From positions 6,432,001-6,496,000 of the forward strand of contig CAVUSO010000001.1 of the NCBI GenBank assembly GCA_963744145.1: 64,000 bases of DNA, in the 5' to 3' direction. Of the stretch, positions 25,897-32,204 are shown one piece after another. This stretch comes from an uncultured cyanobacterium (GTDB lineage Bacteria > Cyanobacteriota > Cyanobacteriia > Cyanobacteriales > CAWUOF01). Below the pieces are notes generated by a model. That model ran no database searches. It was not told the origin of the DNA and was given only the letters and a program-made list of their open reading frames with translations. The stretch's first letter is position 1; each line of letters opens with the position of its first letter. Made by a program: the position numbers and the translations under genes.

Positions 25897-27801
25897 TCAT
25901 CTTTTTTTGGCAGGATTTTTAGCTTTATTTTTGGGAGATTTCTCAGATGTTTTTGATTTTATAACATATTTTGAAATAAATTTATCCGCTGAATCAGTAG
26001 ACGGTTGAGTGATACCAAGACGAATAAACTCTGTCCATATTTCATTAGTTAATAATTTTAAAGCGGTGTTAGGATTTTGAGTAGCGATCGCACTAATAAG
26101 TTTTTGACAACCTTCTTGCAATGACTCAATATTTGCATCTTCTGGTGAAATCTTTTTCAGTAAAGAAAGTGCTATTGCAAAATATTCAGAATCGAGGGAT
26201 ATCTTTTTCAATTTTAATCCCCGATTTACCAATTTTAACCAAATAGGTAACAATTCCAGCCAATTATTTTGCTGGATATTTTTTAATGCTTCTTCCTCCA
26301 TCCTAAGTGTACTCCATCCGCAAAGAGCAGCTTTAGCTGATTGAAAATCATGTATTTTTAAAGCATTATTCCATAATTTTTGTACCTGCTGATTGAACCG
26401 ACTTGCTAAAAATTGGTAAGCTTCTTGAACTTGTTCTTGAATTGTTACTTTATAAACAGTTTCTCCCCTTGGTAGTCTATCTCCTCGATAAGAAAGGAAA
26501 TTGTGAGAACCACATAAGTGAATTTTGTGATCGACTACTACTTCCTTCGCATGAGAATTTCCCAACCAAAATATCTGTACCGCAGGTAATTCATCAGGTG
26601 TTGTAATTCCTGTTAGTTTTTGCTGGAGTGTGGGAGAAATTTGTCGTTCTTCTTCTTCTTGTTTGCGTGCAATTCCATAACCAATTAAAATTGAAACTCC
26701 GCGTTTGGCAATATTCTCAAGCAATTTGATAAAATCATCATCGATCACTTCTTCACTCACCCAAGGAGAAAAAATCAGGATCTCATAACTTGCTGATTTC
26801 AGAGTATCTAAAAAAGCTTTCCTAATCTCACTATCACGCAGCAAAATAACACTATTTTTTGACGAAGACTTAGAATTATTCCTATTTTCTAGAACATTTT
26901 CAATTGCGATATGATTAATTTTTTCAATTCTTGACTCAACTTCTGCATTGCTCTCTTCCATTAGTAGATCGCGATCGCTAGCAATAGTTTCTTCACTAAG
27001 AGAAAACAAATCTTGCAAAGAAATCATTCCTTCTTCTTGCAGGACATCTAACCAAGTTGAAGGATATTCTAAAACTTGCTTACCACGCATAACTTGCAAG
27101 TTTATTTGGTCTTCAAGTAGATCAAAAATCACGAAAATAGATATAGCTTGCCAGATATTTGTAGCTGCATTTATTACTATACCTGCTTTAGTAATTAATT
27201 TACCTTCTTTTGGTACATGAATTCCTAAACTTGAAGCCTCAATTATTTCCTGAAGTTCTTCAAGGGACAAAACATAAATATCAGGACTTCTATTTTCAAT
27301 CACCATGAAATTTTCCAATTCTGGTAATTCGATTTGTTTTTCCTCCAAAGGAGAATCTAGAAAAAAAAGATTGCAGTTTAATGGGTCAGTAATAGCATAA
27401 ATTTCTTTAGTTTGTGGAGGTTGGGGAACAGAACCTTGTGCATAGAATTCTCGTCCTTGAGCAGTAAGTGTGATCGATTCATCGAGGTTCCGTTCTAAAG
27501 TCTGCAAAAAGCGGAGAGTTCTAGTAGTATTTTGTACGAATACAGGATCTAGACCAAGTACAGTTGCTAATTCATCCGCTGTTGGTGGTGGATCAAGTTC
27601 AATCCCAGCGCGAAGAATAATCTCTTCTAATACATTAAATTTACGAGGCTCACTAATTGTAACTTTCACTGGAACTTGCAAAAGACTATAGCGGAATTGA
27701 CGTGCTGCTAAGACGGATAAAGCAGGATTTTTTTGCTCAATTTTATCTGCGGTTTCTTGCAAAGCTGCATCAATTGGTTTAGGGGATGATACTAGAAACA
27801 T
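25897..27801 (-). CDS. PLD-superfamily single-HKD putative nuclease with N-terminal wHTH-like region
   Basis: IFSPWV and SHAKEVVVD...GSHN (HxKxxxxD-GSxN); GGAGGA RBS; start overlaps the helicase stop. Confidence 0.8.
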   Translation of the reverse strand: MFLVSSPKPIDAALQETADKIEQKNPALSVLAARQFRYSLLQVPVKVTISEPRKFNVLEEIILRAGIELDPPPTADELATVLGLDPVFVQNTTRTLRFLQTLERNLDESITLTAQGREFYAQGSVPQPPQTKEIYAITDPLNCNLFFLDSPLEEKQIELPELENFMVIENRSPDIYVLSLEELQEIIEASSLGIHVPKEGKLITKAGIVINAATNIWQAISIFVIFDLLEDQINLQVMRGKQVLEYPSTWLDVLQEEGMISLQDLFSLSEETIASDRDLLMEESNAEVESRIEKINHIAIENVLENRNNSKSSSKNSVILLRDSEIRKAFLDTLKSASYEILIFSPWVSEEVIDDDFIKLLENIAKRGVSILIGYGIARKQEEEERQISPTLQQKLTGITTPDELPAVQIFWLGNSHAKEVVVDHKIHLCGSHNFLSYRGDRLPRGETVYKVTIQEQVQEAYQFLASRFNQQVQKLWNNALKIHDFQSAKAALCGWSTLRMEEEALKNIQQNNWLELLPIWLKLVNRGLKLKKISLDSEYFAIALSLLKKISPEDANIESLQEGCQKLISAIATQNPNTALKLLTNEIWTEFIRLGITQPSTDSADKFISKYVIKSKTSEKSPKNKAKNPAKKR

Positions 27802-30800: not shown

Positions 30801-32204
30801 GATTTTTCCTGCTCGTTGCCAAAAATTTTCGGCTTTCAGAAAAATTTCAGAAGAACTATCATTGATGGCTTTATTAGGAACAATTTCAAATGTAATTTTC
30901 CTAGTCGCGGCTCCATAATTATGCTTAATAAAAGGTACGCAAAATTGCCGTTCTTTAGCAATGCGCTCCTCAATATTTAAAAAGGTTTTCCAAGCCTTTA
31001 ACTGTTCTTCCGTTGGCAAATGATCACCACAGAAGGGCATCTTTGCCATTCTTGATATCACCGATGGTAATATACCGATCCGGTGTTGATGTTCACGCAA
31101 CAAACAAATATTATAAGGTACACTAAACCCATCTAATTTTCCCCGATCCGGTGACAATAATCGAGCCGATAGCACTCGCAACCCACCATATCCATTTTGA
31201 TTGACAACTGCCACCAAGTTCAAGGTTTTTCCACATTTTTGCAGGATCGCAGGTAATTCAATATTACCTCGATCTGTTGCTATTGTTAATTCCCATTTCT
31301 CTTCCCCATCCTGCTGTCCTTTTCCCCGACGACGCACATAAAACAAACATGGATCTTGTCCAGCAATTTGGTAGACTAATTCTTCAGCGCGATCGCGTCT
31401 ATCTTCAAAATCCAAATACTTTTCTAAAGCAACTTTTCCTTCCACATCGCGAATCAAATTATTAATCGCAGGATCACCAACAAACCTATAACCCCAATTT
31501 TGGTCATCTAATCTCTCTAACCCTTTTTCCCGATCAGTGAATAGAGAAATATTACTCCCCTTTCCTTGCAGGAGAGGGGTTGGGGGAGAGGTTTCTTTAA
31601 TCTTAGCAGTAACCTCAATTGTCTCATCTGCGCTATCAAAAAAGATCAAACCAGATAACTTCGTCCCCGGCAAAATATCTTTCGAGTTTAAGCTAATCTC
31701 TAAATTTTGCCACCCTGGCGATAAATAATTGGACTTTACTTGCAGCCAACTAAGATCATAAATAATTTTACAAGGAGCGCCTATTTGCAACTCCCAAGAA
31801 CGCTTCACCAACCGATCGCTTTCAACTTCTCCAAAATCCAGTACCGCTGGAATATTCCAACTAGCACCTTCCCAGCGCACATTTTCAGCTACTCCAGTCA
31901 ATCTCACTCGATCTAAAATAGGTGATGTTCCTGTTTCAGCCAACAGTGCTACTTCTCCCTTGTCTCCTCCTACAGTACGAGCGATCGCCAAATTCTCGAT
32001 CCGCACCCCGGTCACTTTCACTACCAAGACAGGTTCATCTGCTGCAAAAATTACCGTATCTGCCCCATTTCCCCGAATTGTAATCGCTTTTTCGATGGTA
32101 AATGGCCCTTTATACTCACCTGGAACCAATTTAATTTCGGAACCATCCCGAATAATTTCCAGAAAATCGCCAATATTCGCAGGATCGGCTGAAAAACTAG
32201 GCAT
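27779..32204 (-). CDS. large Upf1/Dna2-like SF1 helicase with N-terminal beta-helix-like and Ig-like domains; +1 frameshift at ~30428
   Basis: Removing one base joins ORFs 30393-32219 and 27779-30388 as ANPE-QIAAVEAVLSADDLVLIQGPPGTGKT; motifs IIDEVS, GDYRQLPP, QYRMHP, TVDRFQG, RVNVAFSRA; 1,474 aa if repaired. Confidence 0.8.

Follow-up and report, generated by a model that had tools for sequence, protein, structure and literature searches.

The window analysed here, a stretch of 64,000 nucleotides (nt) from an uncultured cyanobacterium (NCBI GenBank assembly GCA_963744145.1, contig CAVUSO010000001.1, positions 6,432,001 to 6,496,000), harbours on its minus strand the genes for a giant Upf1-like superfamily 1 (SF1) helicase and for a partner with a phospholipase D (PLD) domain, which probably represent a cyanobacterial form of the Mokosh type I system of phage defence, recently inactivated in this genome. 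The interval 25897-32219 is filled by three co-directional reading frames (Table 1). P0001 and P0002 are two pieces, in different frames, of a single helicase gene, and the helicase of about 1,474 amino acids (aa) read from this DNA in the original prediction consequently stands as one coding region but not as one open reading frame, interrupted as it is by a 1-nt insertion at 30429/30430. The helicase stop codon TAA (27781-27779) is located 23 nt inside the partner gene P0003, the ATG of which at 27801 is preceded by a ribosome-binding site within the helicase 3' end, as had been noticed from the sequence alone. With this spacing and overlap, translational coupling of the partner gene to the helicase gene is plausible. 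A scan for promoters and terminators remained at chance level (promoters, 26 vs. 23.2 expected; terminators, 6 vs. 5.8 expected), and no RNA dataset is among the sequencing runs listed for the locus. A perfect palindrome with a 15-bp stem and the core GGGGCGTATGCCATACGCCCC (32349-32381) is located in the 1.1 kb of intergenic DNA preceding the helicase gene, the exact core being present once in the window, and an imperfect hairpin resembling this palindrome is found ~170 nt further on, around 32520-32550.

Table 1. Coordinates of the helicase-partner pair, its internal features and other features of the window (window positions; E, expectation value)
Feature	Position	Strand	Remarks
Helicase gene 5' fragment, P0001	30393..32204	-	From ATG; 603 aa and stop, with 11 residues out of frame
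NosD-like start of right-handed beta-helix	31974..32165	-	P0001 residues 14-77; NCBIfam TIGR04247 positions 4-67
Frameshift site	30429..30430	-	One additional A in the coding strand; GAC (Asp) in relatives, GAAC here; shortly before Walker A
Helicase gene 3' part, P0002	27779..30430	-	883 aa plus stop; frame open from 30466 to 27779
Walker A	30350-30373	-	P0002, Upf1-like SF1B core
Long insert between motifs Ia and II	28676..30253	-	P0002 residues ~60-585; Pro/Gly-poor, heptad-rich
In-frame gap junction	29518..29519	-	~65 aa vs. closest relatives; P0004 residues 894-958 missing from P0002
Motif II	28649-28669	-	P0002, Upf1-like SF1B core
Ribosome-binding site GGAGGA	27809..27814	-	7 nt before the partner ATG, within the helicase 3' end
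MkoB-like partner gene, P0003	25897..27801	-	634 aa plus stop
N-terminal adaptor domain	26932-27801	-	P0003 residues ~1-290
Catalytic motif H417-x-K419-x4-D424 ... G431-S432-H433-N434	26500..26553	-	25-sequence alignment
AbrB/MazE-type antitoxin-like open reading frame	32959-33147	+	62 aa; MazE_antitoxin E 0.04 only
347-aa protein	34524-35567	-	HEPN_RiboL-PSP E 0.009; PADLOC DzbB E 2e-4
182-aa protein after the 347-aa protein	35632-36180		No family match in Pfam or PADLOC
Complete ribosomal RNA operon	13075-17940	-	5S 13075-13192, 23S 13276-16153, 16S 16450-17940

The C-terminal part of the helicase, P0002, carries the full set of SF1 motifs I, Ia, II, III, IV, V and VI, with GPPGTGKT starting at residue 20, IASQAN at 46, IIDEVSK at 588, GDYRQLPP at 614, QYRMHP at 668, TVDRFQG at 797 and VAFSRA at 833. 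Together with the Pfam matches to AAA_11 (E 1e-41) and AAA_12 (E 4e-47), and with Upf1 (2xzo, E 2.7e-35), IGHMBP2, Dna2, Sen1 and ZNFX1 as the best solved relatives, these motifs agree with the Upf1/Dna2-like helicase proposed at first reading. Equally, the several hundred residues postulated between motifs Ia and II correspond to an insert of ~540 residues in P0002. A crude scan assigned to this insert a heptad-like, Pro- and Gly-poor pattern compatible with the predicted coiled coil, and Pfam matches within it consist of the edges of AAA_11 and weak helical families only. Among 24 aligned family members, a RecG model was matched by 8 and a DnaX model by 5, through one and the same module. 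The same genome encodes a second Upf1-like helicase (G000:C1:2323951-2325873; L004, L005) with an open frame of 1082 aa, which is 31% identical to the C-half of P0002.

The N-terminal fragment P0001 can be divided into a module of about residues 1-230 and a pre-helicase region (~232-590) common to all family members. As the first ~230 residues are absent from many conserved members, the N-terminal part, supposed at first reading to sense a ligand while the helicase would license the nuclease, is considered an accessory module and not part of the core. Intact cyanobacterial proteins of 1400-1730 aa cover 98% of P0001 at 47-74% identity; a search with P0001 retrieved 140 longer proteins at E≤0.001, with a top match 74% identical, and the best 120 of those 140 are cyanobacterial proteins of 1100-1860 aa. 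The beginning of the accessory module matches the NosD-like model TIGR04247 with E 6.7e-6 and 24.9 bits, far below the model's cutoff of 300, and the same model is matched by 23 of the 24 aligned family members (best E 6.1e-9), so that the start of a right-handed beta-helix originally suggested for this region persists as a recurrent, though sub-cutoff, sequence match. Atlas leads to DUF1565 and Beta_helix clusters at this N-terminus reached 0.81-0.82 only, and for the Ig/BACON-like segment a language-model lead scored 0.88, short of the line of 0.9 set by the tool. Pfam searches (E≤1) of helicase residues 1-235 and 236-590 gave nothing real, and residues 1-235 had no match to Protein Data Bank (PDB) sequences at E≤10. 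A search for other proteins containing the module (residues 1-230) gave 12 matches, every one a fragment of the same helicase family.

The partner protein P0003 consists of an N-terminal adaptor domain, a PLD domain with a single HKD motif (~320-470) and a helical C-terminal region. The one HxKxxxxD-GSxN motif previously noticed in this ~634-aa protein is well conserved, with H417, K419, D424 and G431 invariant in 25/25 aligned sequences and S432, H433 and N434 at least 90% conserved. A PLD domain with a single HKD motif needs a second copy to form the active site, as is known from Nuc, BfiI and Zucchini. P0003 has 528 relatives at E≤0.001; the partner profile gave no match to PDB sequences at E≤0.01, and the N-domain a chance match only. 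The N-domain also occurs without the nuclease, and such a nuclease-less partner (L010:10632-11522) still matches the N-terminal part of the PADLOC MkoB model (model positions 16-242, E 2e-9). Used as a query against 1.84 billion representatives, this short partner retrieved 125 matches, nearly all of them beginning within the first few dozen residues. For the 76 N-domain proteins of at least 340 aa, Pfam (E≤1e-4) assigned PLDc_2 to 26, DarT to 2, and REase_MTES_1575, WD40 and GatB_Yqey to 1 each, and nothing to 45. The single fusions extend the N-domain to WD40 repeats (P0275, 1212 aa), to GatB_Yqey (P0310, 690 aa) and to an REase_MTES_1575 nuclease domain (P0363, 511 aa). A fusion to DarT is followed by an ADP-ribosylglycohydrolase gene at the locus L018, and the same trio, composed of a helicase of 1246 aa, an N-domain-DarT protein of 531 aa and the ADP-ribosylglycohydrolase, resides between pglX and pglZ of a BREX-1 locus on plasmid pC052_C of Nostoc sp. 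C052 (L025, NZ_CP040275 82531-101325). The N-domain is the constant element of the partner, with PLD, DarT or no effector attached. In the Atlas, the clusters nearest to it have 12% winged-helix members (0.91, a lead only), and the adaptor domain is probably of the winged-helix type.

Mokosh has been described as a combination of a COG1112/Upf1-like helicase and a PLD nuclease, distributed over two genes in type I, with a Ser/Thr kinase domain in the type I helicase protein and with loss of defence in Walker and PLD mutants (Millman et al., 2022, 10.1101/2022.05.11.491447). The PADLOC models for MkoA match P0002 with E 1.6e-100 (PDLC03920) and E 1.8e-92 (PDLC03921), and the MkoB model PDLC03922 matches P0003 with E 7.1e-32, aligning residues 43-466 to positions 15-443 of 610, an alignment that takes in both the PLD domain and the non-catalytic domain N-terminal to it. 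All 5 intact homologues tested match MkoA (E 7.7e-107 to 8.8e-117), and in intact relatives the model reaches upstream of the helicase core (P0004 residues 401-1523 on model positions 430-1096). For comparison, the validated pair of enterotoxigenic Escherichia coli (ETEC) H10407 (NC_017633 3053165-3058610), which encodes an MkoA of 1215 aa and an MkoB of 602 aa with an 11-nt overlap, matches the same two models with E 1e-262 and 6e-99. The pair had originally been regarded as an undescribed and unnamed system, a view that these matches contradict by placing it in Mokosh type I; the more general idea of a helicase-nuclease anti-phage pair is, on the other hand, supported by the profiles and by the ETEC-like gene order.

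Several observations nevertheless weigh against the assignment, some of them in the proteins themselves and others, given below, in their distribution. Alignment of ETEC MkoB with P0003 is confined to the PLD core, with 25% identity over 160 aa (E 2e-4), and when the partner alignment was compared with the one ETEC MkoB sequence by hhalign, the probability was 22%, again for the PLD core only. ETEC MkoA is 26% identical to the helicase, in the C-half only. Because direct similarity to the ETEC proteins is weak, membership depends on the PADLOC profiles. Furthermore, positions 1 to ~430 of the canonical MkoA model, covered by ETEC MkoA, are unmatched by the cyanobacterial proteins, and the Pfam PLDc_2 match of P0003 attains 25.4 bits, under the gathering score of 27. 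No kinase family was detected in P0001 by Pfam at E≤0.1, or at E≤1 in sub-regions, a search that is insensitive in this respect as it detects none in ETEC MkoA either at E≤0.01. Finally, no phage assay of any cyanobacterial member was found in the Mokosh literature.

The inactivation of the window copy is indicated by two lesions. In the 23 intact relatives aligned with P0001 the junction reads ...KLKPEDLLLPxANxDQIAAVEAVLSAPDLVLIQGPPGTGKT..., and in the window the sequence across the site is ...AAT CCA GAA C CAA ATT GCA..., with a stop 13 codons downstream of the insertion. Equally, a module of ~65 aa is absent from the window copy and present in 8/8 of the closest relatives (P0004-P0011); with these residues, the greater part of a DnaA_N-like PF23007 module of the insert is missing (PF23007 vs. 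P0004, E 9e-13). It is unlikely that the frameshift arose from faulty assembly or base calling and that the organism carries an intact, active gene. Contigs of four public sequencing runs, aligned to 29900-30900, all cover the site, and each lacks one letter at 30429 or 30430; one of these, a 187-nt contig from run X1, is at least 99% alike and the other three are more distant, which speaks for an error, except that X1 may come from another strain. Both halves of the gene are otherwise open and conserved, as would also fit an error. The protein P0367 from an independently assembled Logan contig has the same truncated frame of 603 aa and differs from P0001 only by E592G at the frameshift codon. 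This second assembly can be viewed from two sides, since a difference restricted to the frameshift codon (GAAC vs. GGAC) is expected of an error-prone position, whereas the recurrence of the same truncated product in the deposited genome and in an independent assembly argues for a genuine mutation. The site is, moreover, not a long homopolymer, and the 65-aa in-frame gap is a second lesion in the same copy. The insertion is therefore probably real in this lineage and recent, and, judged from the reading frames, a system with its helicase truncated before Walker A and with the 65-aa module lost is probably not functional as encoded. Programmed frameshifting was rejected, as neither the near-identical contig nor any of the relatives contains the extra base and the surroundings of the site are neither slippery nor stop-adjacent.

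Among 401 cyanobacterial genomes, matches to P0003 (E≤1e-10) were present in 61 and matches to P0002 (E≤1e-40) equally in 61, concentrated in two families (f3, 21/25 genomes; f6, 35/45 and 36/45); a locus search from one protein alone yielded 2 related loci only. For the count of gene coupling, 10 partner rows were dropped, consisting of 3 further fragments of already counted broken genes and 7 matches to the PLD region only, and the helicase side was restricted to C-terminal helicase segments. The 60 partner matches retained, from 59 of the 401 genomes, overlap or abut the helicase 3' end in 53 cases (-20 to +7 nt), lie 0.28-2.6 kb downstream in 6 and are unlinked in 1 (G206), which bears out the co-occurrence of the two genes for which a survey had been suggested. 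Three records of relatives are located on plasmids, and HsdR is encoded upstream of the pair at the locus L017.

Some deviating arrangements were observed in this survey. In G206:C1 (L015, L016; ~5.34 Mb and 6.68 Mb), partner and helicase are both intact and 1.3 Mb apart, each keeping its own half of the conserved Nostocaceae flanks, as if a chromosomal rearrangement had split the operon. Two loci of the genus g22 (L014:9742-9981 and L019:10216-10452) contain, in a helicase-partner gap of 1-2.6 kb, an open reading frame of 78-79 aa, 83% identical between them and without family match, which may be a third component or a remnant. Two helicase copies lie ~9 kb apart in G152:C27 (192151-204126), with an adjacent partner match only at the downstream copy. 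Furthermore, two genomes possess beside the cyanobacterial variant a second, more canonical-sized Mokosh-like pair (G050:C19 50508-52910 and G208:C74 30308-32695), in which the helicase frame comprises ~1190-1200 aa, 36% identical, and a PLD-only match follows ~1.1 kb downstream.

The distribution also supplies those observations that fit less well with a defence system. In some genera no sampled genome lacks the family (g3, 19/19; g14, 9/9; g22, 8/8), and 20 of the 60 partner matches cover the PLD region, the other 40 being limited to residues 1 to ~330. These PLD-less partners are mostly open reading frames of ~280-325 aa, although some have stops inside the match and may be decayed. Pairwise dN/dS (ratio of non-synonymous to synonymous substitution rates) according to Nei-Gojobori amounts to 0.10-0.31 for the helicase and 0.15-0.32 for the partner of nuclease-less pairs, that is, purifying selection. 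The Nostocaceae genera g7, g9, g12, g16, g22 and g31 share one chromosomal site, preceded by HDAC-like and MscS genes and followed by GCS2, SpoU and M23-LysM peptidase genes, at which g22 and g31 have the PLD domain and g7, g9, g12 and g16 lack it. Housekeeping flanks on both sides are likewise common to 5 g3 loci and to 3 g14 loci. Fixed syntenic sites and purifying selection on nuclease-less pairs are unusual for defence, and two readings have been built on them.

According to the first, which may be entertained as a possibility but is more doubtful than not, the conserved unit is the Upf1-like helicase with its winged-helix-like adaptor, ancient and vertically inherited in filamentous cyanobacteria, the adaptor serving as a socket for exchangeable effectors. 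If true, Mokosh-type helicases would have a nuclease-independent activity, with RNA or ribonucleoprotein remodelling, blockade of translation or replication, or housekeeping surveillance as candidates, and the defence system would be one derivative of the helicase-adaptor core. The second reading, a good deal less probable, sees in the helicase-adaptor pair a conserved cellular RNA/DNA surveillance module resembling Upf1 or MOV10L1, with PLD optional and the window copy a dispensable paralogue. Besides the presence in all sampled genomes of the three genera, the common sites and the selection, the intact but distant genes of G206 would be in line with such a module. Against it stand the identity of the matching profiles, which are Mokosh profiles, the exchange of the effector for DarT or a restriction-type nuclease, and the trio inside a BREX locus on a conjugative plasmid next to other plasmid-borne copies. 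Equally, synteny of the window with 12 related loci was sought and 0 neighbours were shared, the one other genome of the window's family that was searched (92% complete) contains no match, with 2/21 relatives matched overall, and the gene is tolerated in a broken state in this strain.

An inactivated Mokosh type I variant accordingly remains the preferred interpretation. Profile membership, conservation of the catalytic motif, tight gene coupling, effector exchange and defence-type contexts support it. A fixed docking domain with exchangeable effectors is the main reason for the mechanism proposed, in which the adaptor domain of the partner would dock the effector onto the helicase, the ATP-driven helicase would survey phage RNA, single-stranded DNA or RNA/DNA intermediates and, upon engagement, two single-HKD PLD domains might pair to form a common active site that cleaves nucleic acid. 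A search of the literature yielded neither a structure nor biochemistry of Mokosh type I, and according to a preprint type I could not be purified. In the cyanobacterial branch the system has been dissected by nature, as there are forms that possess or lack the N-terminal module, forms that possess or lack the DnaA_N-like module, and forms with PLD, DarT or no effector, and such variants could reveal which parts sense, dock and kill and whether the helicase-adaptor core is useful without a nuclease. The window itself is a modest example, being a broken copy of a catalogued system type, and the exchange of effectors at the adaptor and the nuclease-less core at the level of the family are of more interest.

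The pair lies within a stretch of ~11 kb between the housekeeping genes for GlgA, ARD and a CrtH-like oxidase at one end and for RecJ at the opposite end. The same stretch encodes Uma2, XisH and XisI, as had been stated at first reading, a 347-aa protein and a small MazE-like open reading frame. The Uma2 neighbour matches the PADLOC candidate family PDC-S03 (E 6e-9). The 'VapBC remnant' also mentioned for this neighbourhood is probably the 62-aa MazE-like frame, for which the antitoxin half is suggested by its marginal family match and no toxin partner was detected; the HEPN assignment of the 347-aa protein is equally marginal (Table 1). Elsewhere in the window, the ribosomal RNA operon gives rise to a GC-rich, skewed block in the composition profile, and an extremely Met- and Cys-rich protein of 126 aa with a weak DUF326 match (21146-21526, plus strand) adjoins a CBS-domain protein (21672-22466, plus strand).

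Compared with Mokosh type I, the window has in common a gene for an Upf1-like SF1 helicase followed by a PLD-family gene with overlapping stop and start, matches of both proteins to the same PADLOC models, and a non-catalytic N-terminal domain preceding PLD in the partner. It differs in the NosD-like start of the helicase, where MkoA has its canonical N-terminal part, in the distance from Walker A to motif II (~560 residues vs. ~160 in ETEC MkoA), in the one HKD motif of the partner vs. two PLD stretches in ETEC MkoB, in the long helical C-terminal tail of the partner, in the cyanobacterial host and in the broken state of the copy. On account of such differences (another N-terminal module, a helicase insert ~400 aa longer, a single HKD and low identity to the validated ETEC proteins, of which only the catalytic cores can be aligned), the pair could be regarded as a defence system of its own, not yet described and connected with Mokosh only through the Upf1-helicase and PLD domains common to both. 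This reading, the original one, is very improbable. The MkoB model covers N-terminal adaptor plus PLD and recognises even the short partner that lacks a nuclease, and in intact relatives the match to the MkoA model begins ahead of the helicase core. The genes have the order and overlap known from ETEC, and an automated annotation of the PADLOC type would in all likelihood have named the pair Mokosh I already. A variant combining absence of the canonical N-terminal part, NosD-like start, giant insert with an optional DnaA_N-like module, single HKD and loss or swap of the effector was not found described in full-text literature, although the supplements of papers may list cyanobacterial Mokosh.

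Mokosh type II (MkoC, E. coli YjhR) contains the same domains, and its model matches the window proteins weakly (5.8e-33 and 9.3e-13), but type II is a single fused protein, whereas the window has two genes, with the helicase stop at 27779-27781 and the partner start at 27801 on separate open reading frames, and additional N-terminal and adaptor domains; a type II fusion was consequently rejected. DISARM was rejected on DrmC matches (E 5.6e-6, 4.5e-4) far worse than those to MkoB, with no DISARM-type domain among 14 neighbouring open reading frames scanned, and the PLD protein of the Dpd system, DpdK, on weak matches only. Hachiman HamAB is a mechanistic analogue with a helicase sensor and a nuclease effector in one complex, but its helicase belongs to superfamily 2 and its nuclease to another family, and no homology is claimed. 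The resemblance to DarTG concerns the loci L018 and L025, where DarT plus an ADP-ribosylglycohydrolase gene replaces the PLD of the partner; this arrangement is absent from the window and shows only that the adaptor domain goes with exchangeable effectors. One preprint (10.1101/2022.12.12.520048) compares Mokosh with the animal PIWI-interacting RNA pair MOV10L1/Armitage and PLD6/Zucchini, in which an Upf1-like 5'-3' helicase acts with a single-HKD PLD nuclease that must dimerise. Shared domains are all that links the two, and the accessory domains are unrelated; in its single-HKD state the partner of the window is closer to PLD6 than to ETEC MkoB, and the link in print lends the single-HKD version added interest.

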